Positions 13,071 to 55,805 of a DNA stretch of 55,805 nt are shown here, piece by piece (positions within the stretch are counted from its first letter, which is position 1; every line of letters begins with the position of its first letter). This stretch comes from Chiloscyllium plagiosum (Eukaryota), in contig NC_057752.1 in assembly GCF_004010195.1 (NCBI RefSeq), positions 4,709,834 to 4,765,638 of the forward strand, written 5' to 3'. Both the position numbers and the translations under genes were made by a program. Under the pieces are notes generated by a model, which was not told where the DNA came from, made no database searches, and saw only the letters and a list, made by a program, of their open reading frames with translations.

Positions 13071-13499
13071 CTTTGACCACACACTCCAGCTCTGGGCAAT
13101 AACTCTGTCATTTTGTCCTGCTCTCTGTCCAGACTCGCTAACGTTTAAAATCCCTTCCGATCTAAGATTAGAGTGATGCTGGAAAAGCACAGCAGGTTAG
13201 GCAGCATCTGAGGAGCAGGAAAATCGACGTTTCAGGCAAAATCCTTCCTATCCAGCACACTGGGGATCCACTCGTCACACAGTTTCCTCTCTCAAAACCT
13301 TCACCCTCTCCCCCCCCCCACCAAAATTCTCAGGAAAATGGCTCTGACTTCCTTCATGCCTGCCTTTGTATCTCCCTGCAACAGGCTGAGGGTAACCAGC
13401 ACTTACTGTGTCACCTCATTGGGTGAGGGCACTCTGTCTTCAGCTGCTCAGAGGGGACAGCTACAGGCCGCAGGCTGCAAGATCTACCAACAGAAAAGA

Positions 13500-27600: not shown

Positions 27601-30600
27601 TCCCTGGAGTGTCGGAGGCTGAGGGGTGACCTTATAGAGGTTTACAAAATCGTGAGGGATATGGATAGGGTAAATAGACAAGGTCTTTTCCCTGGGGTCG
27701 GGGAGTCCACAACTAGAGGGATGAAGGAGCAGCACTCTGAAAGCTTGTGATTTCAAATAAACCTGTTGGACTATAACCTGGTGTCATGTGACTTCTGACC
27801 CTGTCTGGAATGAGAGTGAAATGCGTAAATTACAGACACCTTTTTTTTTGTCAATGTCTCTACTTCCCAACCATTACTGTGTGTACTGTAACCATTTTCA
27901 GTAGAGCACAGAATTATTTAGATAGGGTCCAGCAGAAAACCTCTATCAATCACTGGGACAGAGCCACACCAGCTCCATTCCCAGGGATGCAGCACTTTCT
28001 CGGTCACAAAGTCTACATTCTGCAACATTTCTTTTCCCTTGCTAGCAGCTCGTGCTAGCTCTGTGTTGTGAGTTCTAGAAAGGTTTGGTGCAGATATCTG
28101 CTGTTCAGGATTTGAAAAATGCCTCTTGTATATTCTACCATGCTGAGCATTTGGCTCTCCCAATATGTGCCAGCTTTGGTCGGAGTGTTTATCTTCGGGG
28201 AAGTGGTGGCAGACGGGAAAGCGATAGGTAATTGCAGACGGTGGTATTACCAGTGGCCAGCAGTCTGGACCAGTTTACTCACCTTCCTGAACAGTAACAG
28301 ATTACTCTCAGCATCCTCCCTCTTCTGAGCTTCCTCTTCCAACCTGCAGCACAAATACACACGACCATTACTGATCTCCCGGCCTGACCGCAAAACCGTC
28401 ACCACCCCATGCTGCAGCAGTGACCTGTGGCATTGCTGGACCTCTCCTTTAAGTGGTGCATGTTGACGTACCAACACAACTGGTATGCATTTCAACAGCA
28501 CCACCTCCCATCTCGTCCATCAGCCACTCTGGAACATGGCTGTATTTCTCTTTTGTTTGTTTGCTTTCCCCACACGTAGCATAGAATCCTGACAGGCCCT
28601 TTGGCCCAACATGTCCACACCAACCTTCCAAAGAGTATCCCACTCAGTGCCCTACCCTACATGTACCCCAGACTAATAATCTAACTTACACATCCCTAGA
28701 AACTACAGGACAATTTAGCATGGCCAATCCACCCTAACTTGCACATCCCTGGGCACTACGGGACAATGTAGCACAGCAATCCACCCTAACCTGCACATCC
28801 CGGGGCACTATGGGACAATTTAGCATGGCCAATCCACCCTAACCTACACATCCCGGGGCACTATGGGACAATTTAGCATGGCCAATCCACCCTAACCTGC
28901 ACACCTTTGGACTGTGGCAGGAAACCAGAGCACCTGGAGGAAACCCACACAGACACAGGGTTCCCACCCTGAGGCTGGGATCGAACCCGGGTCCCTGGTG
29001 CCATGAGGCAGCAGTGCCAGCCACTGTGCCACCCATCCCACTAAACAAGCTGCAAAGTGAGGATCTGGGTGAGCGGTTTTATGGCAACTGGGGGGCAGGG
29101 TGGTGGTTGGCAAGGGCACCAGGCAACCCTCCCCACTCTTGTGGGAACATTTACAGCCCTGAGTTGACGAGAGGCGGCACTTCCCTTCCCTCTCCACCCT
29201 TAGGACCCTTCCCCCCACCCCCTTCGGCGCTTTAGCACCCGCCGAGATAATCAAGCGTTCCCCTGGAGCTAGATGTAACCTTGTCTCTGGCCATCTCACT
29301 TAGGGAGTGCCCAGTGAAGGGCAGGTTGGTGCTGGGAAAGCTGGTGCGCGCTCTCTCTCTCTGCGCGCGGGAGAGGGCGAATGTCAGGATTACCTCAGCT
29401 GTCCGCCACCCACCACCAGGGGCCTCTGCTGGCCATCTGTTTCGGAAGGTGGTTGCGAAGAATTCGGATTTCTAACAAAGCCATGTGCCCTCCCACCCCC
29501 TTCTCCCGCGGGCATTGTATGGGTGGCAGCTGCCATCTGGCATCCCAGCAACCCCGGCTCCTTTCAGCCCTCGCTGGTCCAGGGCCTTTGGAATTGATGC
29601 CAAGGTTCGGTCAAAGCGGCGCTTCCTGAAACCTGCAGCCTCCCTGCTCTGCGTCGTGTCATTAAACCTTCGAGGAACCCATTAATAATAGGGGCACACA
29701 CCAGTGATTGAGGCCTTTAGTTTGCATCCAGAGGCTTGCGAACACGATGCCTGAAGGGTGGGAGGGGGTGTTTAAAAAGAAAGTAGCTGGCCCTGTGAAA
29801 GACCACAGCTTCCAGGGCTACAGGACACAAAGGGCCTCTCTCTCTCTCTGTGCTGTGACGCAGGGTCAGGCCTGTGGGGATGATGTTCGGGAAAGTGCAC
29901 AGTGATGGAAGACACCTACCTTTTAAAACTCTGCTGTGACAAAAGGAGCTCTTGACTTCAACAGGGAATCCACAGAACATCACGTGGAACAGATTTGCAA
30001 GAGGATATAAACCTTGAGCTCAGAGGTAGTGTCCCTACCTATGAGCAAGGAGGCCTGGGTTCAAGTCCCACCTACTCCCAAGGTGTGCCAATACAGGGCG
30101 GCACGGTGACTCAGTGGTTAGCACTGCTGCCTCACAGCACCAGGGACCCACGTTCAATTCCAGCCATGGGCGACCGTCTGTGTGGAGTTTGCACATTCTC
30201 CCCGTGTCTGCGTGGGTTTCCGCCGGGTGCTCCGGTTTCCTCCCACAGTCCAAAGATGTGCAGGTTAGGGTGGATTGGCCATGCTCAATTGCCCATAGTG
30301 TTAGGTGCATTAGTCAGAGGGGCGTGGGTTACTCTTCGGAGGGACTTATTGGGTCGAAGGGCCTGTTTCCACACTGTAGGGAATCTAATCTAATCTCTGA
30401 ACAGCCTGATGCGAAATTATCGAGAAATCCTGTCCGACATTAGTGAGGGGCCCAGCATATAGGATTCACCTCCAACTGACCTTATTGGAGGGAAATCATT
30501 CGACCCAAACTCCCCCCCCTGAACATGTTTGATCTGTCAGCTTCAGCAAACTGAAGAATATTGGAGAAGGAGCAGTCCTGATCATTTACAAATGTGCTTC

Positions 30601-33600
30601 TACTATTTTACAATGTTGCCTGGTGACTCTGGGTTTAAAATTCAATAAAACTAAGCTCTGAGCCTTGACTGCATAAAATGTGGTCCCACATGCAGGGGTA
30701 ATTAGACAAAGTCCGTTCCCTGGGCTGGGGAGTCCAGAACTAGAGAGCATAGGTTCAGGGTGAGAGGGGAAAGATATAAAAAGGACCTAAGGGGCAACTT
30801 TTTCATGCAGAGGGTGGTACATGTATGGAACAAACTGTCAGAGGAAGTGATGGAGACTGGTACAATTACAGCACTTAAAAGGCATCTGGATGGGTATATG
30901 AATAGGAAGGGTTTGGAGGGATATGGACCAAGTACTGGCAAGTGGAACTAGATTAGGTTAGGATATCTAGCCAGCATGAAAGAGTTAGACTGAAGGGTCT
31001 GTTTCCATGCTGTACGTCTCTATGACTCTAACAAGGACAAGAATTTTCAAATGAGTGCCATGCTTCACCAATGTAGGTCAGAGAGCATAGGGCTGGTATA
31101 TGAACCCAGGATGTGGTGGGAGTCAGGTCATGGGGTAGCAGAGGTTTGGGTGAGTTGAGGTTGATGGAGGGTAGAATGTGGGGGAAACCAGCTGAGAGTG
31201 TGCTGAAATAACTTTGAGGGAACAGAGGTTTGAGGGAGGGTTTCAGCAGGCAGGATGTTGAGTGATGTTGCAGCGACGTGGTGATTCGTGGCCATAAGAA
31301 ATGGAGTGAAGGTACAAACAGAATATCTCCCCAGTGTGAACCGAGACGCTGTCTGGCCAAGCCGCAGACAGATGCCACGGAGAGGGATGGAGTTGTTTTG
31401 CAGTCAGGGATTGAAGGCAGTGGCCTCGGTCTTCTCACTGTTGACCAGATCACCCCCAGCACTAAATCAATGATGAGCTGCTCTGGATGATTTCTCTCAC
31501 CTCCCACCACTCCCCACACCCCCCCGCCACTTGCCTGCATCAAAGTGGCTCCAACACCCCCATTGTGTTGAGCGACTGGAAGAAGGATTCAATCTGAGAC
31601 CGTATGGTGTCCACTTGAGGTGTCTGGAATTGTGTGTGTCTCAGTGACTCAGAAAAAAAATCAAGATGGCACCCTTCTGCATTCTGATAGAAACAGTGTG
31701 GCTCAGTGGTTAGCATTGCTGCCTCGCAGCACCAGGAACCCAGGTCCGATTCCAGCCTCAAGTAACTGTATGGAGTTTGCTCCCAGTGTCTGCGTGGGTT
31801 TCCTCCCACAGTCCAAAGATGGACAGGTTAGGAGGACTGGCCATGCTAAATTGCCCATAGTGCCTATGGATGTGCAGGCTAGGTGGGTTAGCTATGGGAA
31901 TGCTGGGTTAGGGTGGGATGCCCTTTGGAGGGTTGGTGGCAGCTGAATGGCGTCTATCTGCACCTTCGGGGATTCTCGGTGTACACCCTCGGCAGGACAA
32001 GCTGCTGTCATGTAGCCCCGGGTTGGAGGGGGAAACTGGAATTCCTCAGCACTCAACAGTCAAGCTGCCGTTGGACAGTTGACAATTTGTACTCCTATGG
32101 ACGAGCAAGGAGCCAAATACTTGGTATCATTTCTGACCAACGGCAATAACTGGTCAATAACTGGCCTCATCCTGACTGAAGGCTCTCAGTGATCTCAGGT
32201 TAGAGAGGAGAGGAAAATAATCTGTGACTCCTCCTTGCCGCAGCACTCCCAGGGCTGCTGCATTACTGTGTGCAAATTATAGAGGCCTTGAATCTGGAAA
32301 GTTCTGCCTTAGAAGGCCAGAGTCATGCCAACCATTGTATATCCTATCCTTTGCTTGTTGTGGGACAGTGTTTCATCTAAGTTTCAGAGGGAGAAAGCAG
32401 CAAACTCCATCATCCAACATCAACCTTCCTTCTCCCCATCACCTGGAATATTCCCTGCATTGGTTCTGCAGCATTCAGAACCTGACAGATAAAATCAAAG
32501 AGTTTATGAAGCAATGCTTGCTCCTGTATTATTGAATAGATCAGAAGGCTAAACTACGAGAAAGATTGACACTGAATGGTTATTGATAGCACAGGTCAGT
32601 TAGCTGAGGGCCAGTAATGATGGAATAGGAACTTGGCTCAGTTCGGAGCCAGAAGATCCAGGGGAGACATTGCAAGCCAAGGAGAGTGAAAGGTTATCAA
32701 GGGAAGACGGGAATGTGAGTAATTAGATCAGCCCTGATCCTATTGAATGGCAGAGAAGGCTCAAGGGGTTAATTAACCTATTCCTGTCATATATTCATAT
32801 TGAAGGATTTGGGCTTGTTTCAAGACTAGAAATGGTTATAGAGTCATACAGCATGGAAACAGACCCTTTGGTCAAACTCATCTATGCTGATCAGATATCC
32901 CAATCTGACCTAGTCCCATTTGCCAGCACTTGGTCCATATCCCTCTAAACCCTTCCTATTCATATACCCATCTAGATGCCTTTTAAATGTTGTAATTGTA
33001 CCAGTCTCCATCACTTCCTCTGGCAGCTCATTCCATACACACACTACCCTCTGTGAAAAAGTTACCCCTTAGGTCNNNNNNNNNNNNNNNNNNNNNNNNN
33101 NNNNNNNNNNNNNNNNNNNNNNNNNNNNNNNNNNNNNNNNNNNNNNNNNNNNNNNNNNNNNNNNNNNNNNNNNNNNNNNNNNNNNNNNNNNNNNNNNNNN
33201 NNNNNNNNNNNNNNNNNNNNNNNNNNNNNNNNNNNNNNNNNNNNNNNNNNNNNNNNNNNNNNNNNNNNNNNNNNNNNNNNNNNNNNNNNNNNNNNNNNNN
33301 NNNNNNNNNNNNNNNNNNNNNNNNNNNNNNNNNNNNNNNNNNNNNNNNNNNNNNNNNNNNNNNNNNNNNNNNNNNNNNNNNNNNNNNNNNNNNNNNNNNN
33401 NNNNNNNNNNNNNNNNNNNNNNNNNNNNNNNNNNNNNNNNNNNNNNCTGGGCTCCCCCACCCCAGGGGGAAAAGACCTTGTCTATTTATCCCATCCATGC
33501 CCCTCATGATTTTATAACCCTCTATAAGGTCACCTCTCAGCCCCCGATGCTCCAGGGAAAACAGCCCCAGCCTATTCAGCCTCTCCCTATAGCTCAAATC

Positions 33601-36600
33601 CCCCAACCCAGCAACATCCTTGAAAATCTTTTCTGCACCCTCTCATGTTTAACAACACCTTTCCCATAGCAGGGAGACCAGAATTGCATGCAATATTCCA
33701 AAAGTGGCCCAACCAACGTCCCGTACAGCGACACAATGACATTCCAATTCCTAACATTTCAAGAGAAAGCCGTTAATTGTTTAATTACATCTAGACTTTT
33801 GTTTCACTTGACAAAGCCCACTTAACTACACCGTAAGTTTTTCCCATCTCGATTTGATGCTAGGTCACTTTTCCCTGTCACTTTTAATTCTTGGGCTCCT
33901 CATTAATTACTGCTCTCTCTGTGTCAGGACCTCTGGAGAAACCTTACTGTGCAGCTTTTAAAAAGAATCATTTTCATAATGTCTTTAAAACAGAAGGCAA
34001 ATGTTACTGTTTGGTTTCAAGCATCCCCAAATTCTGCTTGTTTGTTCTTATAAAGGAAACATACAACTTTTGCAGAAGTAACATTAGATTATATGCAACT
34101 TTTCTTTCTTTTAAAATGATCCTGTAGTGATTGTAACAAGGTCAGGTAGGTCGACCTCATAGAATCTGAGTTCCCCGATTGGGGCTGTTAACCTGGTTCA
34201 ATCAGGGAGCCCTGGCTGACAGGTAACCACAGGAGGGTCAGATCACACTGAGAGCTGGCTCTGAGGGAGCTGGATCAGTGTCAAGGACTCTCCACATGTA
34301 AATAAAGGAGGACTTTGTGACTGGATACCGGCCTCTGGGGAGTTATTTCAGTGGCGACGAGAGTAAAGCACGTTCCTGAAATAACTCGCAACAGTTCTCT
34401 GTAGATTGGGGTGAGCACCATGCTGTTATTTGGGAAGCTTGTTCTGACACCTCTTATGGCCCTGAGTGGAGAGACCCAGGAAACTGCAGGCCAAGGATAC
34501 ACAGGCTAGATAACAACCAAGAGTGGAGAATGACTGAAGCAGCACATCTAACAACAATGGACTGAATTCATCTAGCCCTATCAACAATGTGAAACTGACA
34601 GGTTGGAATTCAGTCACAGTAAGAAGCTAGGTCACTTGGTTCAGGCCTGTGGCCAGTGGAGTGCCACAAGGGTCTTTGCTGGGTCCACTGCTTTCCGTCA
34701 TTTATATAAATGATTCGGATGTGAGCATAGGAGTTACAGTTAGTAAGTTTGCAGATGACACCAAAATTGAAGATGTAGTGGACAGCGAAGAAGGTTACCT
34801 CAGATTACAACGGGAGCTTGATCAGATGGGCCAATGGGCTGAGGAGTGGCAGATGGAGTTTAATTTAGATAAATGCGAGGTGCTGCATCTTGGGAAAGGC
34901 AAATCAGGGTAGGATTTATACACTTAATGGTAAAGTCATGGTGAGTATTGCTGAACAAAGAGACCTTGGAATGCAGGTTCATAGTTCCTTGAAAGTAGAG
35001 TTGCAGGTAGAGAGGGTTGGGGGATTTGAGCTATAGGGAGGGGCTGAATAGGCTGGGGCTGTTTTCCCTGGAGCGTTGGAGGCTGAGGGGTGACCTTATA
35101 GAGGGCTATAAAATCATGAGGGGCATAGATAGGATAAATAGAGTAGGGGAGTCCAGAACTAGAGGGCATAGGTTTAGGGTGAGAGAGGAAAGATTTAAAA
35201 GCTCAGTACTGAACAGGGCAGTGTACAATTTTTCACTCGAGTTCAGTGAAACCCCATGCTGTTTAAAACCACAGTGAAGAAGGTTTCACTCATTTCCCAG
35301 AAGCTGACCCAGTCACTGTAACAATGCGAGAAGCATCCAGAAGATAGTTTGCTTCTTTGATTCAACTCATGTTTTTTCTCATTTCAAATGATTTCTGCTT
35401 AGAAAGCACAGGAAACTGCACCATGCAATGCGAGGTGTGAGTCAAGTATTTTGCCTGAATAGAGATGATTTCTGACAATATTTGAGTCAGTCAGATCACA
35501 GTTCCTACCTGACCTGACAGATATTGAAGGCCGGTGTGCAGGATGGACTTTAAAATAGTCAACATCCTCCTTGCTTTCACTTTGTTTCTGGATGTTTGCA
35601 CAGATCTAGCTTTGAGTAGGGACCATCTGTGGAAGACCATGCAGAATGGACAACTAGGCAAAAGAAGCGGACTTCAATTAGTCACCATTTCACGGATAGA
35701 ATAAAGAAAATGGTGTGTGTGGAGAAATGATGCATCTAAGCAGGAGATCACAGCTCACACAGGGCTTAGGGTTAATGGCTCATGGAAAGTACTTGCTCAA
35801 TACAGAATCCTTCAGTCAGGATCAAAGACAACTCGAGGCCAATTCACAAAACAGGAAATCCAGATAAGTATATATAGCCATAGAGCCTAACACTGAGCTG
35901 AATGTATACACAGCGTTCAGAAGACCAGGAGAATCGACGTTTTGGGCAAAAGCTCTTCATCAGGAATGAGGCTTGTGAGCCGAGGGGGTGGAGAGATGAA
36001 TGGGAGAGGGGTGGGGCTGGGGGGAGGTAGCTGCCTTGTAGAGAGAGGAGGAGAACTTCTTCAAGGTAGGCATCCTTGCAAGAGGATTCGCAGTAGGGTT
36101 AAAATCAACTAGGAGAAAGGTGAGGACTGCAACTGCTGGAGATCAGAGTAGAGAGTGTGGTGCTGGAAAAGCTCTGTTCCCCCCCAGCCCCAACCCCCCC
36201 TCCCATTTATCTCTCCACCCCCTTGGCTCACCAGCCTCATTCCTGATGAAGGGCTTTTGCCCAAAACGTCGATTCTCCTGCTCCTCGGATGCTGCCTGAC
36301 CTGCTGTGCTTTTCCAGCGCTACACTCTCAACTCTGATCTCCAGCAGCTGCAGTCCTCACTTTCTCCTGAGGAAGTCTGTAGAACATGTTTATGACTGAT
36401 GGTATCGTGTTGCTATCTTTGGCCATCAGAAACCTAACAGTATTGGCCGTGATGGGGGCTGAAGAATTCAGAGCAGTTGGTTTAAGTCTTTGTCAATGTG
36501 GCTTCCCTTGTTTCCAAACTGCAGGGCCAGCAGAACCTGACTGTGGCCTGCAAAACGCCAAGGAAATCACTTCAACATCTCCACTGGACAAGGTCCTATT

Positions 36601-39600
36601 AGGTCAACTCTCCTCAGACAGCACCTTCCAAACCCACGACCACTTCCATCTAGAAGGACAAGGGCAGCGGATACATGGGAACATCACCCCCTGCAAGTTC
36701 CCCTCCACTCACTATCCTGACTTGGAAATATATCGCCGTTCCTTCACTGTCACTGGGTCAAAATCCTGGAATATCCGCCCTAGGGGCATTGTGGGTGTCA
36801 GTACACCAGTAGTTCAAGGAGGCAGCTCACCACTGCTTTCTCAGGGGGTAACTGGGGACAGGCAATAAACGCTGGGCCCAGCCAGTGATGCCCATGTCCC
36901 ATGAGTGAATAAAAGTGCTCCTCAGTTCTTGACAAACACAGAACAATATCAGTTCACTACTGGATTGATGTTTGCATGGGGCAGTCAACTTAGGACAGAA
37001 ACAGACCTTTCAGTCCAACCAGTCAATGCCAAACATAATCCCAAACTAACCTAGCCCCACCTGCCTGCTCCTGGCCCATATCCCTCCAAACCTTTCCTGT
37101 TCATGTCCTTGTCCAAATGTTTTTCAAACATTGTAACTGTACCCACATGCACCACTTCCTCAGGAGTTCAGAAAAGATTTACAAGGACGTTGCCAGGGTT
37201 GGAGGATTTGAGCTACAGGGAGAGGCTGAACAGGCTGGGGTTGTTTTCCCTGGAGCGTCGGAGGCTGAGGGGTGACCTTATAGAGGTTTATAAAATCATG
37301 AGGGGCATGGATAGGGTAAATAGGCAAAGTCTTGTCCCTGGGCTGGGGGCATCCAGAACTAGAGGACATAGGTTTAGGGTGAGGGGGGAAGATATAAAAG
37401 AGACCTAAGGGCCACGTTTTGGGTGGTGCGTGTCTGGAATGAGCTGCCAGAGGAAGTGGTGGAGGCTGGTACTATTGTCACATTTGAAAGGCATCTGGAT
37501 GGGTATATGAATAGGAAGATTTAGAGGGATATGGGCCAAGTGCTGGCAAATGGGACAATATTAGGTTGAGATATCTGGTCGGCATGGACGCATTGGACTG
37601 AAGGGTACATCTCTATGACTCTAAGTCCTTTCCACACGTGAACCACCCTCTGTGTAAAATATTTGCCTCTCATGTCTTTTTTTTTAAACTCTCTCTCTCC
37701 TCTCACCTTAAAAGTGTGCCCCCAGTCTTGAAATCCCCCATCCTAGAGCAAAGACAGCTACCATTAACTATCTATACCCCTCATGATTTTATAACCTTCT
37801 ATAAAGGTCACCTCTCCACCTCCTATGCTCCAGTGGAAAAAGCCCTTGATACACCCAGTCGATATGTGACGCAAACTTCAAAATGGGCGTAACTCCCAGA
37901 GGTGAGGCTTGAACCACAGCCTTCTCAATGGAAGGCCAACAAAGCCAAGCCTATGCTTTATCAGCATCTGACTTTAGAACATAATGGGACCATGTGCAGC
38001 CATGTTGGAGAGTGACACTTCAAAACCCGCTCTGAGCAGCGCGGGGAAAAGAATGAAATGATAGAATGAGGGATGGAGTGCACTTTATGCTGAAAATAAA
38101 AGAAACCAAGTGGCCCAGATATGGTTAATTGATACCACAATGCGTCTGCATATTCGGACTAAAACAATGGCCCCATCAAAAATCTTCCACAACCAGCAAA
38201 GACTTTCAATTTAAATGATACACAGACTAAAGCTGAAGCCAATTTTCCTTTTAGCTTCGTGGATTGAGTTCCAGCCTTCAATAATTCGCTTTTGCAGCAC
38301 TTTGGCTTTGAAATGTTTCGGTTTAGAAGGATCTCGATGAAATGGAATCGCCCGGATTTTGTGGTCCTGGGTGAAAGAATGGTGCCAGCTGGTCAGTACG
38401 ACTTAAACTTACCCCCAGGCTTTTTCCAGAGAACCTGGAGAGAATAAAAGACTTGCATTTCTGTCACGCTTTTCACAAGCACCAGGCATTTCAAAGTGCT
38501 CTGCAGCCAAACAGGTACTATTGTAACATCAGTGCTAACTTCTGTTCAGCAAAACCCCCCCCAATAGCAATATATGGGCAGCATGGTGGTTAGCACTGCT
38601 GCCTGACAGCGCCAGGGTCCCCGGTTCAATTCCAGCCTCAGGCAACTGTCTGTGTGGAGTTCTCTGGTGCTCCGGTTTCCTCCCACAGTCCAAAGATGTG
38701 CAGGTTAGGGTGAATTGGCCATGTTAAATTGCCCCATAGTGTGCAGGCTAGGGGAATTGCAGGGATAGGGAGGTGGGTCTTTGGAGGTTCAGTGTTGACT
38801 TGATGGACCAAATTGCTGGCTTCCACACTGTAGGGGTCTTGTCTGAACCATTGATTCTCCTGACCCACTGTGCTTTTCCAGCCCCACTCTCATCCTGGTT
38901 CTGTGATCATGACCAGTCAAATTATTTCTTGTGTGATGTTGATTGAGGGATGAATATTGACCTAGACACTGGACTCAATTGTCTGCCTCTACTTTGAAAC
39001 AATGCAGTGGGACCTTGCACGTTCACCCAAGCAAACAGCTGGGATCTGAGTTGAACGGTTCGTTCACACGACAGCACAATGCTCCCTCAGGACTGCAATG
39101 GAATAAAAACCTCGAATTTTGCACTGAAAGTCCAAGAGAGAGACCTGAACCCAGAGACAAGTGGTGCGACCACTTGAACCATGAACTGACATGGTCGTAG
39201 CAGAGCTGAATTGAAATCAATATCTGCATGCTGTCTTCTGCAGGATGTAGAACACCGAACAATACAGCACAGTACAGGCCCTTCGGCCCATGATGTTGTG
39301 CTGAGCATTTATCTTAATCTAAGATCAACCTAACCTACACACCCCTCAATTTACAACCATCCATGTGCTTGTCCAGCAGTCACTTTAATGTCCCTAATGT
39401 CTCTGACTCTACTACCACCGCTGGCATTCCATGCACCCATCACTCCTACATAAAGGACTTATCTCTGACATCTCCCTGATACCTTCGTCCAATCACCTTA
39501 AAATTATGACCCCTCGTGACAGCCATTTCTGCCCTTAGGAAAAGTCTCTCGCTATCTACTCTATCTATGCCTCTTATTACCTTGTACACCTCTATCAAGT

Positions 39601-42600
39601 CACCCCTCTTCCTCCTTCTCTCCAGGGTGAAAAGCCCTAGCTCACTCAACCTCTCTTCATAAGAGATGCCCTCCAATCCAAGCAGCATGCTGGTAAAACT
39701 CCTCTGCACCCTCTCTAATGCATCTACATCCTTCCTATATTGAGGCGACCAGAACTGAACACAATATTCCAAGTGTGGTCTAACCAGGGCACTCAATCCC
39801 CCTGTTAATGAAAGCCAACACACCATACACCTTCTTAACAACCCTATCAACTTGGAACTTGTGTGAACAGGGGAAGCAATAATGTGCCTTCTCAACCAAC
39901 CAAGCAGAGAGAGCCTGAGTCAGAGAGTACTTATGCCAAATCCAGTGCAGAATGCAACACAAAGAGAATTACATCATGAATGTGTTACGAAAAAAAAGGG
40001 ACTAAAAAAGACTGACAGAAAAAAAAAAAGTTTATTTCAATAAATCTCCAGTAATAATTAAAGTCTGAAGGACTGTGAATCTGCACTTGGACAAATTCAT
40101 TTTCACTTCCAGCGAGGTGGTCTGCTGTTAATTGTGCTGGTAGCCTCACTGTTCATTTTAATCACAAAATCTGAGCCAATGCACTGAGGGGTTGACTGTT
40201 GCCACAAAGTCACCTCATCTAGAAGACAGACAGCATGCATCTCTTCAGCATTAGGCAGCACGGTGGCTCAGTGGTTAGCACTGCTGCCTCAGTGCCAGGG
40301 ACCTGGATTCAATTCCAGCCTCAGGCGGCCGTCAGCGTCGAGTTTGCATGTTTTCCCCATGTCTGGGTGGGTTTCCTCTGGGTGCCCCGGTTTCCTCTCA
40401 GTCCAAAGATGTGCTGGTTGGGTGAATTGGCCAAGCTAAATTGCCCATAGCGTTCAGGGATGTGCAGGTTAGGTGCATTAGTCAGGGTTAAGTGTAGGGG
40501 GATGGGTCTGGTGAGTTATTCTTCAGAGGGTCGGTGTGGACTTGTAGGGTTGAATGGCCTATCTCCACACTGTAGTGATTCTATGTTTAAATTGATTGAT
40601 CATAGCTGGATGATGGGCTTTTGCCCGAAACGTCGATTCTCCTGCTCCTCGGAAGCTGCCTGACCTACTGTGCTTTTCCAGCACCACACCCTCGACTCTG
40701 ACTCTCCAGCATCTGCAGTCCTCACTTTCTCCCGATCCTAGACCTTTCAAGTGAGCTTATTCTAGCCCACTAAAGGGGTGCAATGGTAGTGCCCTCACCT
40801 CTGAGCCAGGAGGCCCAGTTTCTAGTCCCACTTGCTCCAGCAGTGAGTAATAAATCTCTGGACTCGTTGATTTCCAATTTCCCCTCCCAGTGGGAAAGAG
40901 TTAGGTTGCCTCAGTTCACCCTTATCCCACCGCCCCACCCGAACTCAGCACCCCCTCCCCACTACTTCACCATTCCCAGTCTCTTTCCTGAATTTCTGCG
41001 GGGAGTCCTGTCCCATAGGCAGCATGGCTGAGAACTCACCGAGAAGGGAAACACCACCACACCTTCACACCTCCCTGCTCCGCGGTGCAAGGGTGGGTGC
41101 ACGGATTCCATTTGCATCGGTGTTACCACGCCTGCGCCAAGCAACAAATGTGCCTGTTGTCAACCGGGTTCAGAATTTGACTCTTTAACAACAGAATTAG
41201 GTCACTTGTCCTCTTCACAGTGATTGATCCAGCCAGCTCCCTCGGGTTCCTCTTCAAAACTCATACACAGAAATCAAACTTACAAGGGAAATAGATGGTG
41301 ACATCTTGCAAAATGTCCAGATTACAGAGGAGCAAGTGCTGGATGCCTTGAAACGGTTAAAGGTGGATAAATCGCCAGGACCTGATCAGGTGTACCCGAG
41401 AACTCTGTGGGAAGCTAGAGAAGTGATTGCTGGGCCTCTTGCTGAGATATTTGTATCATCGATAGTCACAGGTGAGGTGCTGGAAGACTGGAGGTTGGCT
41501 AACGTGGTGCCACTGTTTAAGAATGGTGGTAAGGACAAGCCAGGGAACTATAGACCAGTGAGCCTGACCTCAGTGGTGGGCAAGTTGTTAGAGGGAATCC
41601 TGAGGGACAGGATGTACATGTATTTGGAAAGGCAAGGACTAATTAGGNNNNNNNNNNNNNNNNNNNNNNNNNNNNNNNNNNNNNNNNNNNNNNNNNNNNN
41701 NNNNNNNNNNNNNNNNNNNNNNNNNNNNNNNNNNNNNNNNNNNNNNNNNNNNNNNNNNNNNNNNNNNNNNNNNNNNNNNNNNNNNNNNNNNNNNNNNNNN
41801 NNNNNNNNNNNNNNNNNNNNNNNNNNNNNNNNNNNNNNNNNNNNNNNNNNNNNNNNNNNNNNNNNNNNNNNNNNNNNNNNNNNNNNNNNNNNNNNNNNNN
41901 NNNNNNNNNNNNNNNNNNNNNNNNNNNNNNNNNNNNNNNNNNNNNNNNNNNNNNNNNNNNNNNNNNNNNNNNNNNNNNNNNNNNNNNNNNNNNNNNNNNN
42001 NNNNNNNNNNNNNNNNNNNNNNNNNNNNNNNNNNNNNNNNNNNNNNNNNTGCGGCTGTACAGGACATTGGTTAGGCCACTGTTGGAATATTGCGTGCAAT
42101 TCTGGTCTCCTTCCTATTGGAAAGATGTTGTGAAACTTGAAAGGGTTCAGAAAAGATTTACAAGGATGTTGCCAGAGTTGGAGGATCTGAGCTATAGGGA
42201 GAGGCTGAACAGGCTGGGGCTTTTTTCCCTGGAGCATCGGAGGCGGAGGGGTGACCTTATAGAGGTTTACAAAATTATGAAGGGCATGGATAGGATAAAT
42301 AGGCAAAGTCTTTTCGGGGAGTCTAGAACTAGAGGGCATAGGTTTAGGGTGAGAGGGGAAAGATTTAAAAGAGACCTAAAGGGCAACTTTTTCACGCCGA
42401 GGGTGGTACATGTATGGTATGAGCTGCCAGAGGATGTGGTGGAGGCTGGTACAATTGCAACATTCAAGAGGCAGTTGGATGGGTATATGAATAGGAAGGG
42501 TTTGGAGGGATATGGGCCGGGTGCTGGCAGGTGGGATTAGATCGGGTTGGGATATCTGGTTGGCATGGACAGGTTGGACCGAAGGGTCTGTTTCCGTGCT

Positions 42601-43722
42601 GTACATCTCTATGACTCTAATTCCTGATGAAGGGCTTATGCCGGAAACATTTAGTCTCCTGCTCCTCTGATGCTGCCCGATCGGCTGTGCTTTTCCAGCA
42701 CCACACTCTGACTCTGATCTCCAGCATCTGTAGAGTGATAGAACATGCCGAGTTGAGAGGGTAGTGCTGGAAAAACACTGCAGATCAGGCAGCATCCGAG
42801 CAGCAGCATGTTTTAAACATAAGCCCTTCATCAAGAATCTGACATGGATCAAACATTCGAGGTTAGACTAAGAATGACCTTTCACCCCTGCTTTCTGCAG
42901 AGCTCCCCCATCCCTGCAATGTGGCTTTTCCCCACTCTGTCCATCTTGCAACTTTGTCCATCTCCCCTCAACCCCCCCCCCCCCCCCCTCCTTACGTCCA
43001 TCTCCCTCTTTGCTTCGCCCATATCTCCCTACATTGTGCAACGTTTCCACCCCCCGTTACAAGGAGGAGTGCAAACTCTCCAACCCTGCAGTAAATGATG
43101 CAAGTTGACCATTGGATTGGGCTGGGAGCAGGAACAAATCAGCATTGGAAAACGAGCAATAACAGAAAGAGTTTGTGCTCTCTCTCTCTCTCTCCCTTTG
43201 AAAACAACAGGGGCCAGTGCAAGAGTTCTCTTACCGTTGTCTGCAGCTCTGGAGATCATCCAGTAAGTTCTCTTTCTCCATCTGGATCCGGTCCTTGTCC
43301 TTGACCACCAGCTCCAGCTGTCTCTTCAGCTCCCTGACCTCCTGCAGATAGACCTCCCCGGCTCGGCTCGGCTCCTTCGCTCGGAGCTGCCTCAGCTCGG
43401 CCAGTAGCACCGCGTTCTGCTGCTCCAAGCCCCTCACTTTGTCGATGAAATTGGCGAAGCGGTCGTTCAGTTCCTGCAGCTGCACCTTCTCGCTGGTCCG
43501 GGTGGTCAGGAACTCCTGGCTGAGGGCATCGGCGACTGAGAAGTCCGCCCTGTCCAGGTAACTCCTGGCGGCTGGGGTGCTGGACCGGGGCCGGTAGGAG
43601 CCGGTGCTGGTCCTCAGGAAAGCTGCAGGCGAGCTGAGCAGCCGGGAGCCGGAGATAGGGGAGATGGAGGCTCCCCCGAAACTCCTCTTGGAAGAGGCGG
43701 TGCTCACACGGTAGGAAGACAT
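15630..43722 (-). CDS. prph: Peripherin (type III intermediate filament), 9 coding exons, 439 aa; this span includes introns
   Basis: Spliced exons give head, coil 1A ([20 protein letters not shown]), coil 1B/2, the rod-end motif ([21 protein letters not shown]) and tail ([14 protein letters not shown]). Exon sizes 61/96/162/126/221/44 match the type III layout. Stretches resembling peripherin more than desmin, vimentin or [67 protein letters not shown]. Confidence 0.88.
16060..16460 (-). mobile_element. CR1-type LINE 3' end in prph intron 8, preceded by a PLE fragment (about 15850-16025)
   Basis: Typical tail (catagaacat...acaggcccttcggccc) and an ORF2-terminal remnant. Confidence 0.7.
16580..16653 (-). 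CDS. prph: prph exon 8 (74 nt)
   Basis: atgctttag|AT TAC GAT CTC...GGA GAG|gtgagg. Reads [25 protein letters not shown]. Confidence 0.9.
16767..16810 (-). CDS. prph: prph exon 7 (44 nt); absent from the ORF track
   Basis: ttccctcaatag|G ATT GCA GTC CCA GTT CAA TCC TTT ACT TCC CTG AGC CTC AGA G|gtgagt. Reads [15 protein letters not shown]; phases 2 and 1 fit the neighbouring exons. Confidence 0.92.
17235..17750 (-). mobile_element. CR1-type (HER1-like) LINE 3' end
   Basis: Reads EYCVQFWSP and [19 protein letters not shown]. Confidence 0.88.
18331..18573 (+). mobile_element. Penelope-like terminal-repeat insertion with a 5' inverted segment and hammerhead-type motif
   Basis: 38-bp inverted repeat 18331-18368 / 18429-18466; CTGAAGA...GAAACGTC at 18459-18492; ACAAAAAAA(AA)TC on both flanks (probable TSD). 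Confidence 0.7.
19230..19578 (-). mobile_element. tRNA-derived SINE (HE1/V-SINE-like), followed by PLE fragments to about 19910
   Basis: Minus strand GTGGTTAGCACTGCTGCCTCACAG...GGTTCGATTCCAGCC. Confidence 0.8.
20169..20389 (-). CDS. prph: prph exon 6 (221 nt), end of the rod domain
   Basis: cgacag|AAC GAC TCC...GAG AGC AG|gtgagc. Reads [15 protein letters not shown]...[28 protein letters not shown]. Confidence 0.96.
20935..21578 (-). mobile_element. tRNA-derived SINE with an internal ~53-bp unit amplified about 8 times
   Basis: Unit AACCTGCACATCCCTGGGCACTATGGGACAATTTAGCATGGCCAATCCACCCT repeated over 21048-21440. Confidence 0.85.
21823..21964. mobile_element. Short Penelope-like insertion with an exact 14-bp target-site duplication
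   Basis: CCTTACAATGTGAC at 21809-21822 and 21965-21978; inverted head followed by a direct tail. Confidence 0.85.
21828..21860 (-). ncRNA. Minimal type I hammerhead ribozyme motif (PLE-associated)
   Basis: C-CUGAAGA-A-GGGC-UUAU-GCCC-GAAAC-GUC-GAUU on the minus strand. Confidence 0.65.
23689..23814 (-). CDS. prph: prph exon 5 (126 nt)
   Basis: cggcag|TTC ACT GAC...GGA ACC|gtaagt. Reads [42 protein letters not shown]. Confidence 0.95.
23853..24167 (-). mobile_element. tRNA-derived SINE (HE1/V-SINE-like)
   Basis: A/B boxes on the minus strand (TGGCTCAGTGG, GGTTCGATTCC) and a CR1-like tail. Confidence 0.8.
24665..25020 (+). mobile_element. CR1-type LINE 3' end (intron 4); a related copy lies at 25445-25795 (intron 3)
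   Basis: Shared tail aggggcaactttttcacacagagggtgg...gaataggaagggtttggagggatatgg. Confidence 0.85.
25137..25298 (-). CDS. prph: prph exon 4 (162 nt)
   Basis: atcccag|GAG CTG CGG GAC...TCT AAG|gtaaca. Reads [54 protein letters not shown]. Confidence 0.95.
26064..26159 (-). CDS. prph: prph exon 3 (96 nt)
   Basis: cccacag|GAT GTG GAT GAT...AAT GAG|gtgagc. Reads [32 protein letters not shown]. Confidence 0.95.
26670..26950 (+). mobile_element. tRNA-derived SINE
   Basis: TGGCCCAGTGGTTAGTACTGCTGCCTCACAG head plus the conserved core. Confidence 0.75.
27490..27805 (+). mobile_element. CR1 fragment (27490-27720) abutting a PLE terminal fragment (27720-27805)
   Basis: CR1 ORF2-terminal sequence, then GATGAAGGAGCAGCACTCTGAAAGCTT...AATAAACCTGTTGGACTATAACCTGGTG. 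Confidence 0.65.
28283..28343 (-). CDS. prph: prph exon 2 (61 nt)
   Basis: tgctgcag|G TTG GAA GAG GAA...TTC AGG AAG|gtgagt. Reads [20 protein letters not shown]. Confidence 0.95.
28580..29035 (-). mobile_element. tRNA-derived SINE with about 5 tandem copies of the internal 53-bp unit
   Basis: Repeated GGGACAATTTAGCATGGCCAATCCACCCTAACC at 28680-28910. Confidence 0.82.
30095..30395 (+). mobile_element. Well-preserved tRNA-derived SINE (HE1/V-SINE-like)
   Basis: GGGCGGCACGGTGACTCAGTGGTTAGC (A box), GTTCAATTCC (B box), core GTCTGTGTGGAGTTTGCACATTCTCCCCGTGTCTGCGTGGGTTTCC, and an (AATCT)n end. Related copies at about 31695-31950, 38575-38840, 40254-40585 and 51820-52115. Confidence 0.85.
30690..31030 (+). 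mobile_element. CR1-type LINE 3' end
   Basis: Reads [23 protein letters not shown]; tail ends CTATGACTCTA. Confidence 0.85.
32835..33750 (-). mobile_element. CR1-type LINE 3' end spanning an assembly gap
   Basis: [26 protein letters not shown] to the right of the gap and the 3' UTR to the left. Confidence 0.85.
33076..33447. other. Assembly gap (372 N)
   Basis: Run of N. Confidence 1.
34123..34442 (+). mobile_element. Gypsy-type 5' LTR (34123-34350), primer-binding site and truncated gag start
   Basis: TGTAG...TTTCA, then G-TGGCGACGAG (PBS), then ATG CTG TTA TTT GGG AAG CTT at 34420. Confidence 0.72.
34645..35200 (+). mobile_element. CR1-type LINE RT fragment with internal deletion
   Basis: [13 protein letters not shown]...SKFADDTKI...[19 protein letters not shown] joined directly to the [15 protein letters not shown] segment. 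Confidence 0.88.
35925..36370. mobile_element. Penelope-like fragments in inverted arrangement with two mutated hammerhead motifs
   Basis: Minus copy at about 35933-35968 and plus copy at about 36238-36274; both have GAAA changed to AAAA. Confidence 0.7.
36600..36915 (+). mobile_element. 3' tail of the LINE family seen at 8585-9440
   Basis: CAGCACCTTCCAAACCCACGACC...GAAGGACAAGGGCAGC...GGCAATAAACGCTGG...ATGAGTGAATAAAA matches the reverse complement of 8590-8830. Confidence 0.75.
36990..37845. mobile_element. Nested CR1 tails: a plus copy (37165-37625) inserted into a minus copy
   Basis: The minus-strand tail is split at ...CCACTTCCTCAGGAG and resumes at TTCCACACGTGAACC after the plus-strand copy. 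Confidence 0.75.
38449..39185 (-). mobile_element. Ancient DeuSINE (SacSINE1-like) interrupted by a younger SINE and a PLE remnant (about 38575-38900)
   Basis: GACTTGCATTT...TCAAAGTGCT...AGCCAA tail, TGATGTTGATTGAGGGATGAATATTG...AGTGGGACCTTGCACGTTCACC central domain, and a tRNA-like head near 39150-39185. Recognised from memory. Confidence 0.55.
39250..39855 (-). mobile_element. CR1-type LINE 3' fragment
   Basis: Reads [29 protein letters not shown]...RGDLIEVYK. Confidence 0.88.
41283..42620 (+). mobile_element. Young 5'-truncated CR1-type (HER1-like) LINE in prph intron 1, antisense to the gene, spanning a gap
   Basis: ORF2 RT N-part ([11 protein letters not shown]...[11 protein letters not shown]...[16 protein letters not shown]) and an open C-terminal ORF 42067-42540; tail CTATGACTCTA. 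Confidence 0.92.
41648..42049. other. Assembly gap (402 N)
   Basis: Run of N. Confidence 1.
42620..42840. mobile_element. Two PLE terminal fragments tail-to-tail with degenerate hammerhead motifs
   Basis: CTGATGAAGGGCTTATGCCGGAAAC at 42624 (plus) and the inverse ...CATAAGCCCTTCATCAAG at about 42818-42836. Confidence 0.65.
43235..43722 (-). CDS. prph: prph exon 1 (488 nt): head domain, coil 1A, start of coil 1B
   Basis: ATG at 43722 (context AGCGGCATGT). Reads [17 protein letters not shown]...[19 protein letters not shown]...QSCRQ, ending at a phase-2 donor CG|GTAAGA. Confidence 0.93.
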
Positions 43723-48840: not shown

Positions 48841-49712
48841 AGGATATGGGGTGCCCATTCCAGGTGTGTGCCATGTATAAGGGTATGATTCCTGATGAAG
48901 GGCTTTTGCCCGAAACGTCGATTTTCCTGCTCCTCGGATGCTGCCTGACCTGCTGTGCTTTTCCAGCACCCTCTGATCTAAACTCTGGTTTCCAGCATGT
49001 GCAGTACTCACTTTTGCCTTAGGAGTATGGGGTGTCCATTCCAGGTGTGTGCCATATATAAGGGTATGGGGTGCCCATTCCAGGTGTGTGCCATGTATAA
49101 GGATATGGGGTGCCCATTCCAGGTGTGTGCCACGTATAAGGGTATGGGGTGTCCATTTCAGGTGTGTGCCAGGTATAAGGGTATGGGGTGTCCATTCCAG
49201 GTGTGTGCCAGGTATAAGGGTATGGGGTGCCCATTCCAGGTGTGTGCCATGTATAAGGATATGGGGTGCCCATTCCAGGTGTGTGCCACGTATAAGGGTA
49301 TGGGGTGCCCATTTCAGGTGTGTGCCAGGTATAAGGGTATGGGGTGCCCATTCCAGGTGTGTGCCAGGTATAAGGGTATGGGGTACCTGTTCCAGGTGTA
49401 TATCAGGTAGAGGGATATGGGGTGCCCATTCCAGGTGTATGCTAGGTACATGGGTATGGGGTGCGCATTCCAAGTGTATGATGCTAGGTACATGGGTATG
49501 GGGTGCGCATTCCAAGTGTATGCTAGGTACATGGGTATGGGGTGCCCATTCCGGGTGTATAACAGGTAGAGGGTTATGAGGTGCCCAATCCAGGTGTGTA
49601 CCAGTAGAGGGGTATGAGGTGCCCAATCCAGGTGTATGCTTGGTACATGGGTATGGGGTGCCCAAACCAGATGTGTGCCAGTAGAGGGGTATGGGGTGCC
49701 CAATCTAGGTGT
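48841..49712. repeat. 39-bp minisatellite (GGGTATGGGGTGCCCATTCCAGGTGTGTGCCATGTATAA), interrupted by a PLE fragment at 48888-49020
   Basis: Period 39 (units at 49062, 49101, 49140...), producing 13-aa repeats in the ORF track. Confidence 0.93.
48888..48923 (+). ncRNA. Minimal type I hammerhead ribozyme motif (PLE-associated), best-preserved copy
   Basis: AUUC-CUGAUGA(48892-48898)-A-GGGC-UUUU-GCCC-GAAAC-GUC(48917-48919)-GAUU. Confidence 0.7.
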
Positions 49713-51120: not shown

Positions 51121-53271
51121 TGTATCCGTTGCCTAACACCATGTGCAATTAGCTATTGGGAGTGGCTTTTCTTTTGCCTCAACCTTATCTAAACCGAGCT
51201 AAGCCTCCTGTTTTGTAAACATTTGAATTGGAAGCTGGAGAATTCTACTCAAACACGCCCCTCAACACACGCAAAAACACTACTCTGCCATCCAGTAAGA
51301 TCATGGCTGATCACAGTACTCCACATTTCCACCCGCTCTCAAAAACGTTTCACCCCTTTACTGATCAACAATCTATCTACCTGTGCCCTGAAAACATTCA
51401 AAGTTAATGTGGCAAAGTAAAGCTGGAAAATGTGGACACCGCCCCTCCAGCCCTACGTCCAAACCTTTGCTGTCGATAATGAATGTTCAAAAGCACAGAA
51501 AGCAAAAAGGTCTTTTCTAAGTGTATTGATAGAAAGATAACTGAGGAGAGGAGAGTTAGTTCCATTTCAGGAGTTCGAATTATGCAGATGTATTCTGGGA
51601 TCATTGGCTAATGTAATGTGCTTTCTCACAAAAAAGAAATGCAGTATCAGCTCGTTAGAGTTTAATATCTGTAGTAGGCATGATTCGGCTATCTTTAATA
51701 ATTAAAGATTAAATTATGAAATATGTAGAGGAGGAGAAAATTGTTTGAAACAGCCAACATGGACTTCAGAGAGGAAACTCCTGCTCCAGAGTCGCGATAG
51801 ATTCTGAGGTGGCAATAAGGTAGCACGGTGGCTCAGTGGTTAGCACTGCTGCCTCACAGCGCCAGGAACCTGGGTTCGATTCCAGCCTCGGGTGACTGTG
51901 TGGAGTTTGCACATTCTCCCCATGTCTGTGTGGGTTTCCTCCCACAGTCCAAAGGTGTGCACATCAGGTGAATTGGCTGTCTAAATGTTAGGTACATTAG
52001 TCAGGGGTAAAGATGGGGTAGGGGAATGGGTCTGGGTGGGTTACTCTTCAGAGGGTGGGTGTGGACTTGTTGGGCTGAAGGGCCTGTTTCCACACTGCAA
52101 AGATGTTTAATCTAAACAAGCTGCTATGGGGATGGGGTGATGCAATGGATGTGGTGGGTAGGGCATTAGAACAAGCCTTTGGCAAGTTCTGAGGAAAAGT
52201 CACTCGACCTGAGACGTTAACTCTGATTTCTCTTCACACGTGCTGCCCAGATCTGCTGAGTTCTTGCAGCAGCTTCTGTCTTTGTTGTCTTTGACCGGGT
52301 ACACAGTAGATCGCTGGAAGCGAGTAAGGGGCATGGGATTATCGGGAGGCAGAAAACTGGATCACCAATTGTTTAAAGAGAGCAAGAGAACAGAAATTAA
52401 AGACAGTTTCAGTTGGAAACGATGATTAGTCCTTCAGAGTTCCGATCACTGTGTACAGCCGTGGTTTGGATATGGATTAGAGGGACTGACATTTAAATTT
52501 ATCAGTAAAAAATAGGAAGCACAGTAAATTATTCTGAGGATCAAGGAAGCTGTAAGGAGAGATGACAAGATAGCAGTAAAAATATGGCAGATGGAATTCA
52601 ACATCTATAAGTGTCAGGTGCTATCTTTTTACCTTAAGAATCAATTGTATTGACGTAGGCTAGGCTCAGCGATATAGAACAGCTGAGGGATTTGGAAGTT
52701 GAGCTTCGCATGACATTAAGTGGATCAAATAAAAGCTAATGGAATGCTGGGTATTGTGCCAAGAGGTATGAAATATAAATGTTGAGATAAAACCTCTATA
52801 AAACTGCAGTTGTAGTCACCTGCAATTTGGCCTCCAATTGGAAGAATGTTGAGGGAATAGAGAGGATACAGACGAGACTCACAATGATACAAATCCACTC
52901 TCCACTTTGGAGTCTTACTATGAAGCAAATTCACAGGGATGTTTCCTGGTGTGAGGAAGTACAAGTCACAACTACATTTTGAAGAAAGATTGGTGCTGTT
53001 TCTCATAGAGAGGAGCATTGATGGTTATGATGAGTTAGGATAGTACTAATAGAAACAGATTGTGTCCCAGTGATTGAGGGTTCTCAACTGAGGACCATGT
53101 CAACTTCACATTAGTTGGAAGTATTTTCAGATCGAGAGAAGGAGAAATCTTTTCGTACAAAGGACTACAGAGTGCGTGGCTGGAGTTGGCCGCCGAGACT
53201 AGATCCACATTTAAGTATTGTTTAGAACAGAGGAGTGGGAATAGAGAAAATGAGAACATGACTTCTTTAGG

Positions 53272-53613
53272 CACTCTTCTCACAGAGCGCTTTAGGGAAC
53301 ATCTCCGGGACACCCGCACCAACCAACCCCACTGCCCCGTGGCCCAACATTTCAACTCCCCCTCCCACTCTGCCGAGGACATGCAGGCGCTCCACCCTCC
53401 CCTTCGACCTATCACCTTTACCCCCACCCCCAATCACCTATTGTACTCTTTGCTATCTTCTCCCCAGCCCCACCCCCCTCCCATTTATCTCTCCACCCTG
53501 GAGGCTCCCTGCCTTCAATCCTGATGAAGGACTTTTGCCTGAAACATCAATTTTCCTGTTCCTTGGATACTGCCTGACCTGCTGTGCTTTTCCAGCACCA
53601 CTCTAATCTAGAC
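53272..53613 (+). mobile_element. Penelope-like element 3' fragment: GIY-YIG endonuclease C-terminal part plus terminal repeat
   Basis: LTERFREHLRDTRTNQPHCPVAQHFNSPSHSAEDMQ, followed by CTGATGAAGGACTTTTGCCTGAAAC and the shared tail. Confidence 0.8.
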
Positions 53614-54957: not shown

Positions 54958-55152
54958 ATACATTGTACTGCTATAATGCGAGTTTTGTTAGTGCAAATTT
55001 GCTATCACATGATTGACGAATTGCGGATACTGTCTCTAAACAACAAACTTTTAAAGCGTGTATTAGTTATAACGCCATTCTGGCCCATTAGTTTAAATGG
55101 TGCCGCTATTACACGGGATTGCATGAGAACAGAACTACTGAGCTATAGCAGA
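54958..55152. mobile_element. Degenerate Tigger-like MITE
   Basis: TACATTGTACTGCTATAATGCG at the left and inverted CTATAGCAGA at the right; the right end is interrupted by a PLE fragment. Confidence 0.4.
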
Positions 55153-55448
55153 TTCTGGATTAGAGTGGTGCTGGAAGAACACAGCAGTTCAGGCAGCATC
55201 CGAGGAGCAGTAAAATCGACTTTTCGGGCAAAAGGCCTTCATCAGGAATACAGGCAGAGTGCCTGCAGGGTGGAGTGATAAAAGAGAGGAGGGTGGGGGA
55301 GGGGAGAAAGTAGCATAGAGTACAATAGGTGAGTGGGGGTAGGGATGGAGGTGAAAGGTTAGGGAGGAGGGTGGAGTGGATAGGTGGAAAAGAAGATAGG
55401 CAGGTAGGACAAGTCATGGGGACAGTGCTGAGCTGGAAGTTTGGAACT
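55153..55448 (-). mobile_element. Penelope-like terminal fragment with a near-intact hammerhead motif
   Basis: Minus strand CTGATGAAGGCCTTTTGCCCGAAAAGTCGATT at about 55245-55214; same family as 53400-53613. Confidence 0.75.
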
Positions 55449-55449
55449 G

Positions 55450-55805
55450 TTAGTCACAGGTGAGGTGCCAGAAGACTGGAGGTTGGCAAACGTGGTGCCA
55501 CTGTTTAAGAAGGGCACTAAAGATAAGTCAGGGAACTATAGACCAGTGAGCCTGACGTCGGTGGTGGGCAAGTTGTTAGAGGGAATCCTGAGGGACAGGA
55601 TGTACATGTATTTGGAAAGGCAAGGACTGATTCGGGATAGTCAACACGGCTTTGTGCGTGAGAAATCATGTCTAACAAGCTTTATTGAGTTTTTTGAAGA
55701 AGTAACAAAGAAGATTGATGAGGGCAGAGCAGTAGATGTGATCTATATGGACTTCAGTAAGGCGTTTGACAAGGTTCCCCATGGGAGACTGATTAGCAAG
55801 GTTAG
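55450..55805 (+). mobile_element. Young CR1-type LINE RT fragment, running off the window end
   Basis: Stop-free frame [21 protein letters not shown]...NYRPVSLTS...DSQHGF...YMDFSKAFDKVPHGRL. Confidence 0.92.

Follow-up and report, generated by a model that had tools for sequence, protein, structure and literature searches.

Minimal hammerhead motifs of a probable Neptune-type Penelope-like element in a bamboo shark, and what its copy ends suggest about transposition

Minimal hammerhead ribozymes (min-HHRs) in the pseudo-long terminal repeats (pLTRs) of metazoan Penelope-like elements (PLEs) were described in 2014 by Cervera and De la Pena (PMC4209133). There, the motifs are defined by an extra base after A9, a G10.1-C11.1 pair and a palindromic 15.2/16.2, they amount to 4,000-9,000 per genome in coelacanth and Xenopus, they occur as solitary copies and as opposite-strand pairs, and they are reported not to cut as monomers and to cut weakly as dimers. 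A second point of reference is the Poseidon element PAc of Anolis carolinensis (Frangieh et al. 2024, PMC11167929), the hammerhead of which is situated at the junction of pLTR and ORF and cuts only in the presence of the element's protein, while insertion does not need cutting. Reverse transcription of PAc uses uncut RNA as the template and starts about 110-120 nt into the ORF with fixed 3' ends, and none of the RNA-seq reads reported ends at the cut site. Endonuclease-bearing PLEs have in common 5' truncation, inverted 5' copies, target duplications of 8-14 bp, junction palindromes read as self-priming, and solo pLTRs (Arkhipova et al. 2013, PMC3846280; Craig et al. 2021, PMC8557442). Finally, the non-LTR retrozymes of animals are non-coding repeats that stem from PLE pLTRs and contain a type I hammerhead (PMC7229834; bioRxiv 10.64898/2026.07.22.740005).

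The class of motif treated here has thus been known since 2014, and its occurrence in a shark is an extension. Neither a shark nor any other cartilaginous-fish min-HHR was found in the accessible parts of PMC4209133 and its supplement, and a limited literature search yielded no published shark PLE min-HHR, so that one may exist. The shark motif shares with the described min-HHRs the type I core, the extra nucleotide, the palindrome, a putative short helix I and the lack of a helix III loop, and it is likewise found mostly in solitary copies of truncated PLEs and in opposite-strand pairs 100-700 bp apart (PMC4209133). The nearest of the motifs listed there, from a Neptune element of Acropora digitifera, is laid out in the same way, its 4-bp helix II beginning with GGGC and its loop counting 4 nt. 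The shark motif differs from the described min-HHRs in its short helix II (4 bp) and in an internal U-U mismatch in helix I.

The motif lies at positions 48888-48923 on the plus strand of the window, that is the whole analyzed stretch of 55,805 nucleotides (56 kb) from Chiloscyllium plagiosum, and comprises all parts of a minimal type I hammerhead, with C3 at 48892 (44.7 bits). It is present as put forward in the preliminary description, and core and helix II can be read directly from the sequence. The 5' strand of helix I (48888-48891) is followed by C3-A9 (48892-48898), the extra A after A9 (48899), a helix II of 4 bp with a U4 loop (48900-48903/48908-48911), G12-A15.1 (GAAA, 48912-48915), C15.2-G16.2 (48916-48917), U16.1 (48918), C17 (48919) and the 3' strand of helix I (48920-48923), the predicted cut being located between 48919 and 48920. 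Helix II is closed by G10.1-C11.1 and consists of four Watson-Crick pairs with a probability of ~1.0, leaving one A unpaired between positions 9 and 10.1. Helix III is replaced by the palindrome ACGU (48915-48918), and the putative helix I is made up of C-G, U-A, a U-U mismatch and A-U. The core boxes CUGANGA and GAAA, followed by U16.1-H17, are kept at 48892-48919 and once more, on the minus strand, at 21859-21832. A strict core pattern matches twice in the window and the 31-mer with at most three mismatches six times, compared to zero matches in every shuffle in both cases; the 48888 motif is therefore not a product of chance. As had been anticipated, standard annotation misses it: an Rfam scan of the window at E<=5 reports no hammerhead family. 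Rfam matches to MIR1858 and mir-471 were rejected, as they correspond to an inverted PLE pair and a minisatellite.

Evidence from other genomes was sought in metagenome contigs, where a scan for the core, with core letters taken from the window, gave at least 121 loci from unrelated families, uncorrected for kinship. Helix I was left unspecified in the pattern, and the 95 distinct variants among the loci listed nevertheless form a mean of 3.0 pairs in this helix vs 1.14 +/- 0.11 after shuffling (0/2000). In 43 aligned variants among the loci listed, covariation amounts to 0.449 vs 0.131, with slid controls at or below 0.096. A PLE protein match is present at 16 of the 121 loci listed, long flanks having been fetched for 80 only, and at 14 of these 16 the motif is situated 179-721 nt downstream of the PLE protein on the same strand; the flank examined contains no PLE protein at the other 105 listed loci. 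In viral contigs, the shark-type pattern had no match and no PLE locus could be confirmed. At two of the metagenome loci (L047, 1501-1581, and L053, 1501-1589), invertebrate-type motifs are paired head to head in inverted orientation, with the joint situated 25-31 nt upstream of C3, and these pairs resemble the shark fold-backs described below.

A covariance model was built from 43 metagenome motifs, the core letters of which are by construction the same as those of the window. It recovers eight of the 13 motif-bearing window copies at E 0.002 or better, places the copy at 19701 (minus strand) at E 0.26 and finds one copy of a second family at E 0.43. Among eight window copies, changes affect 3/79 non-CpG core positions vs 30/375 tail positions and 2/8 CpG core positions, counts that are too few and biased by copy selection. 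In one public sequencing run, 11-19% of the aligned depth differs at each of five CpG positions of the motif including G12. Since copies decay after insertion, conservation among copies within one genome is the wrong test of selection, and covariation belongs between families or species. That the hammerhead likeness is accidental is an extremely improbable proposition: the absence of a hammerhead from the Rfam results and a core conservation not clearly in excess among eight copies could be quoted in its favor, but it is opposed by the position of the site downstream of a PLE endonuclease, the exact min-HHR anatomy and the covariation in unrelated PLE families. In substance, accidental resemblance is already refuted by the covariation and the PLE linkage at the metagenome loci.

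In the window itself, the link to PLEs rests on protein remnants. The peptide said to precede the copy at 53517 is real (53270-53392); it is located just C-terminal to the YIG motif, a placement made by homology, and on its own gives no Pfam match. With 36 of 41 residues identical (88%), it matches a protein of Chiloscyllium punctatum (P0001), and a second peptide (55430-55365) matches the C-terminus of the same protein with 82% over 22 residues. In both cases the motif follows the protein remnant on the same strand (53392 to 53521; 55365 to 55245). P0001 contains RT-like and GIY-YIG regions with RVT_1 and GIY-YIG matches below the Pfam cut-offs; relatives clear these cut-offs (GIY-YIG in P0003, RVT_1 in P0005). 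A single ORF with RT and C-terminal GIY-YIG is assigned by homology only, as the window holds no whole ORF. Close relatives occur in whale shark, zebra shark and rays, followed at about 50% by coral and mollusc records. In a PLE protein of the zebra shark (P0007), the reading frame continues past the endonuclease into LMKGLRPKRQL, which is the window motif's own frame. A Zn-finger-like CX2-5CXXC linker between RT and endonuclease is present in P0001 and in 100 of 106 fetched proteins with a YIG motif, the linker region itself being outside the window remnants. PMC8557442 gives the CX2-5CXXC linker as a feature of Neptune and mentions a Zn-finger-like linker for Nematis as well. By its linker motif, rather than by a tree, the parent element would be a Neptune-type PLE. 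There is no full-length PLE in the window. An ORF start candidate (36109-36032, minus strand), where one arm runs past the tail into an open frame, did not match the fetched PLE proteins, which themselves appear to lack a true N-terminus. The anatomy, the PLE remnants joined to two copies, the covariation elsewhere and the published definition (PMC4209133) all support the earlier proposal that a PLE terminal repeat carries the min-HHR. Taken together, it is highly probable that the bamboo-shark motif is a minimal, dimer-type hammerhead in the pLTR of a Neptune-type, endonuclease-bearing PLE, copies of which are short and mostly decayed.

The repeat headed by the motif measures about 130 bp (BLAST and nhmmer, within the window). 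All nine places listed in the preliminary description hold a copy, with boundaries off by a few bases, and its figure of about nine was too low: the window contains 13 motif-bearing copies and three inverted arms without the motif's front. Two of the 13 are fully intact (C3 at 48892, plus strand, and 21859, minus strand), four keep the core boxes and lack either one pair of helix II or the 15.2/16.2 palindrome, and seven have a broken core, among them 36243 (plus) and 35963 (minus), in which G12, the general base (PMC6155905), is changed to A. Most copies in the window are dead relics.

The insertion at 48888..49019 (plus strand) is a short PLE end-piece of about 132 bp comprising the motif and a tail of ~95 nt, its 3' end being approximate (49019-49023). 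The second intact motif (C3 21859) resides in the minus arm of a fold-back insertion at 21822..21964, the plus arm of which starts from G12 and which is bordered by an exact 14-bp target duplication (21809/21965). Another fold-back insertion (15853..16023) has a plus arm from motif position 3, a minus arm from position 39 and a 12-bp target duplication with one mismatch. The longest PLE remnant (53262..53612, plus) consists of the endonuclease-domain peptide, a pyrimidine-rich upstream region, a decayed motif at 53517-53552 and the tail; a further one (55140..55450, minus) combines the ORF 3'-end peptide with a decayed motif (C3 55245). The complex inverted locus at 35917..36372 unites the two motifs with altered G12 and a third arm (36176-36032) that extends past the tail, and a convergent pair of decayed motifs at 42620..42838 (42624, plus, and 42834, minus) starts on both sides from the motif's first base. 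At 19615..19751 (minus) a decayed copy (C3 19701) abuts a piece of the ORF's 3' end, the stretch between the two being skipped. The remaining copies are a short one that starts from near C3 and has an altered 5' half-core (40606..40735, plus), one truncated within the core that starts near G8 (13160..13247, minus) and a strongly decayed one (38830..38900, plus).

A second, older family is represented by a decayed motif with another helix I (GUU/AAC) and helix II at 52184..52290 (plus), with relatives at 26504 (plus), 11879-12069 (an inverted pair with a 12-bp duplication) and 13511-13700 (an inverted pair). Its tail is the same as that of the first family; helix I consists of three different pairs, and helix II differs as well. 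All copies of the second family in the window are decayed.

Three of the stumps (42620, 40606 and 38830) are found directly 3' of the 3' end of another dispersed repeat, which we take to be CR1/SINE-like, and possibly reflect a preference for its AT-rich tail. Remnants of LINE reverse transcriptases, presumably CR1-like, are present at 41228-42540 and 55450-55805 (both plus strand), one of them broken by an assembly gap. Tandem expansions of 53 bp occur within copies of a dispersed SINE-like repeat (21045-21443 and 28681-28903).

With respect to abundance, a 171-nt query aligns with 82,074 contigs from one run and with 9,665 from a second; these figures are not a copy number, and they show a very large repeat family. 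In the window there is one motif-bearing copy per 4.3 kb. In a multi-gigabase genome, this density would mean hundreds of thousands of relics, though the window may not be typical. At 13 copies in 56 kb, the shark density appears to exceed by far the 4,000-9,000 per genome given for coelacanth and Xenopus, a comparison affected by the fact that the counts in PMC4209133 refer to intact motifs only.

Whether such motifs cut is a separate matter. The best predicted fold of the monomer (-11.4 kcal/mol) has the core boxes paired with each other, compared to -5.2 kcal/mol for the hammerhead fold; helix I, with two pairs, the U-U mismatch and one further pair, reaches pair probabilities of at most 0.03 in the predicted monomer. 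A dimer paired through the palindrome without helix I is predicted at -18.9, vs -24.6 for the best dimer fold. In the window there is no intact same-strand partner for the 48888 copy. As published min-HHRs are not cut as monomers and the Anolis motif needs its protein, solitary window copies are probably inert, and the cut site after 48919 is a prediction. In one RNA run, 3204 of 12,955,460 records fall on the repeat in both directions, a fraction of 0.99 of them continuing into other sequence, and the same-repeat reads do not pile up at any start or end. This run stems from a poly(A) single-cell library, possibly of another species than that of the window, and is not counted against activity because such a library is unsuited to reveal cut ends; a second RNA run with zero reads on the repeat is no test of activity.

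It is conceivable, if rather doubtful, that the motif shares the same PLE origin and is uncut in the shark lineage even in the parent element, being kept as a protein-binding or promoter structure. The very weak helix I and the competing fold would agree with this, as would the lack of any copy that ends at the cut site, the finding that hammerhead mutants do not impair insertion of the Anolis element (PMC11167929) and the spread of Naiad PLEs without the motif (PMC8557442). On the other hand, the family's majority letters keep a complete catalytic core, the helices I and II of the second family differ from those of the first and still pair, and min-HHRs with a 2-bp helix I exist within the published range of 2-6 bp (PMC4209133).

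The genomic surroundings bear on a possible host role. The window contains a peripherin-like gene on the minus strand (16577..43722) with eight coding exons, in which residues 1-425 of 439 have been located and the last 14 not placed; its exon 1 is 100% identical to a C. plagiosum peripherin-like protein. The 48888 copy lies 5.2 kb upstream of this gene on the opposite strand, within a 39-bp minisatellite (48846..49712, plus) with about one unit before and an array (49025-49712) after the insertion, and a target duplication cannot be judged within this minisatellite. The other intact copy (21859, minus) is located in a peripherin intron. Very improbably, one of the two, the intronic copy or the one at 48888, would have been co-opted by the host: two of 13 copies are intact and the intronic one is in sense orientation in the pre-mRNA, but an intact motif agrees with a young insertion, the 48888 copy departs little from the family majority anywhere along its length, 21859 is locked by its inverted arm in a long predicted hairpin that pairs the core's 3' half as well as the cut site, and neither has an intact same-strand partner in the window. 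The 48888 copy is probably a young, solitary insertion, without a host role and inert.

The same region is rich in other tandem repeats. Just upstream of peripherin, a 26-bp minisatellite forms a 3.5-kb array (44362-47866) of 135 copies with 93% matches, a three-unit inverted piece of which is found 600 bp from the array (48482-48558), flanked by a direct duplication of ~115 bp (48361-48480 and 48558-48675). A GC-rich 31-bp minisatellite with 79 copies occupies 5125-7577. A short open frame at 54024-54167 (minus), without a significant Pfam match, may be the last coding exon of a neighboring gene.

The ends of the copies are informative about how they arose. Six of the 13 motif-bearing copies start at motif positions 1-3 (48888, 42620, 42838, 21862, 15915 and 19704), one starts near position 5, one at position 10 and four 64-254 nt upstream, and one is too decayed; none starts at the cut site (position 33). 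Seven of 13 starts within 7 nt correspond to a scan-corrected chance of 1e-3 to 2e-6, depending on the span, for a pattern noticed after the fact. The 3' ends of the ~130-bp units are similar, near positions 127-134. Loose ends at 48887-48889 were seen in 1380 contigs of run X1; such ends are expected at 48888 for any copy, the query repeat beginning there, and only the low agreement of 0.31-0.33 (near random), vs 0.44-0.46 at the 3' side, is informative. Repeated joints in the same run connect 48888 to the opposite strand at 48922-48937. Exact duplications of 14 bp (21822-21964) and 12 bp (near 11.9 kb) exceed all 293 random pairs, and the remaining target duplications are borderline or not above chance. 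From these copy ends we infer that the template RNA was uncut and that its 5' end coincided with the front edge of the motif, a reading drawn after the fact from 13 copies, four of which extend further upstream.

A sharp common 5' start, similar 3' ends and target duplications would also be expected of an independent non-autonomous element, SINE-like or a monomeric retrozyme, with own transcripts and mobilized in trans by the PLE protein, and animal retrozymes do derive from PLE pLTRs and are present in the sole chondrichthyan sampled (bioRxiv 10.64898/2026.07.22.740005). This origin of the ~130-bp unit is nonetheless unlikely. Retrozymes form tandem arrays with a motif per unit (PMC7229834), whereas in the shark the copies lie scattered or in inverted orientation, and PLE coding sequence is retained in some; the motif occurs in none of the 22 tandem-repeat rows of the window and in no tandem array. 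Moreover, four of 13 copies extend into upstream PLE sequence and one arm past the tail, and the cut site does not bound the units, unlike in retrozyme monomers.

Transposition of the PLE itself would account for the ends as follows. In the parent element, two motifs would pair through the ACGU palindrome or get help from the element's protein, and motifs paired or assisted in this way would cut slowly after C17 and thereby process tandem transcripts. On uncut RNA, the element's RT would prime internally about 95-100 nt downstream of the motif and run to the RNA 5' end at the motif's front edge. The outcome would be stumps of ~130 bp, 48888-49019 being an example, to some of which a second, inverted arm was added. 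The use of uncut RNA as the template and the internal start of RT would be a likeness to PAc, a member of the Penelope/Poseidon clade as opposed to the Neptune-type linker in the shark protein; that copies begin so abruptly at the front edge of the motif is a shark feature that was not found described for PAc in the accessible part of PMC11167929. The 5' truncation, the inverted 5' copies and the target duplications are as in other endonuclease-bearing PLEs, from which the shark element differs in that its junctions fall on the hammerhead and most insertions measure only 130-200 bp (PMC3846280; PMC8557442).

The sequence TCATTC spans the motif boundary in two of the four copies with upstream sequence. 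We take it to fit the initiator consensus. An initiator-like site is described in a rotifer pLTR, where junction palindromes are read as self-priming (PMC3846280). Drosophila Penelope speaks against an RNA start at the motif: its start is placed 46 nt upstream of an intron of 75 nt, the end of which coincides with helix I (PMC2377424, PMC4209133). We tentatively suggest, as a possibility that may well prove wrong, that the stumps record transposition in the following manner: transcription begins on an initiator-like A, which doubles as the first base of helix I, the hammerhead makes up the transcript's first 36 nt, RT primes about 130 nt into the RNA and continues until it runs off at the cap, and the inverted arm arises when the cDNA folds back on the helices of the motif. 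A DNA fold of the cDNA end revealed no significant fold-back structure (z -0.41), so this last step is without folding support. Bolder still is the idea that inverted arms beginning 2-5 nt past the cut site (joints of 48888 to 48922-48925) are copies of cleaved RNA and would constitute a genomic trace of cleavage in vivo; against this step, there are arms in the window that start at positions 25-28, upstream of the cut. If the suggested course of transposition were true, the ribozyme would be a 5' switch, removing a capped 32-mer, and a fold-back template, not a monomer-length cutter.

As a ribozyme, the shark motif adds little, since min-HHRs are on record from PLE terminal repeats throughout the animals. 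With it, their range comes to include sharks, at an apparently very high density and in copies that Rfam misses. The more useful point is provided by the copy ends, which constitute a large natural record of PLE transposition.
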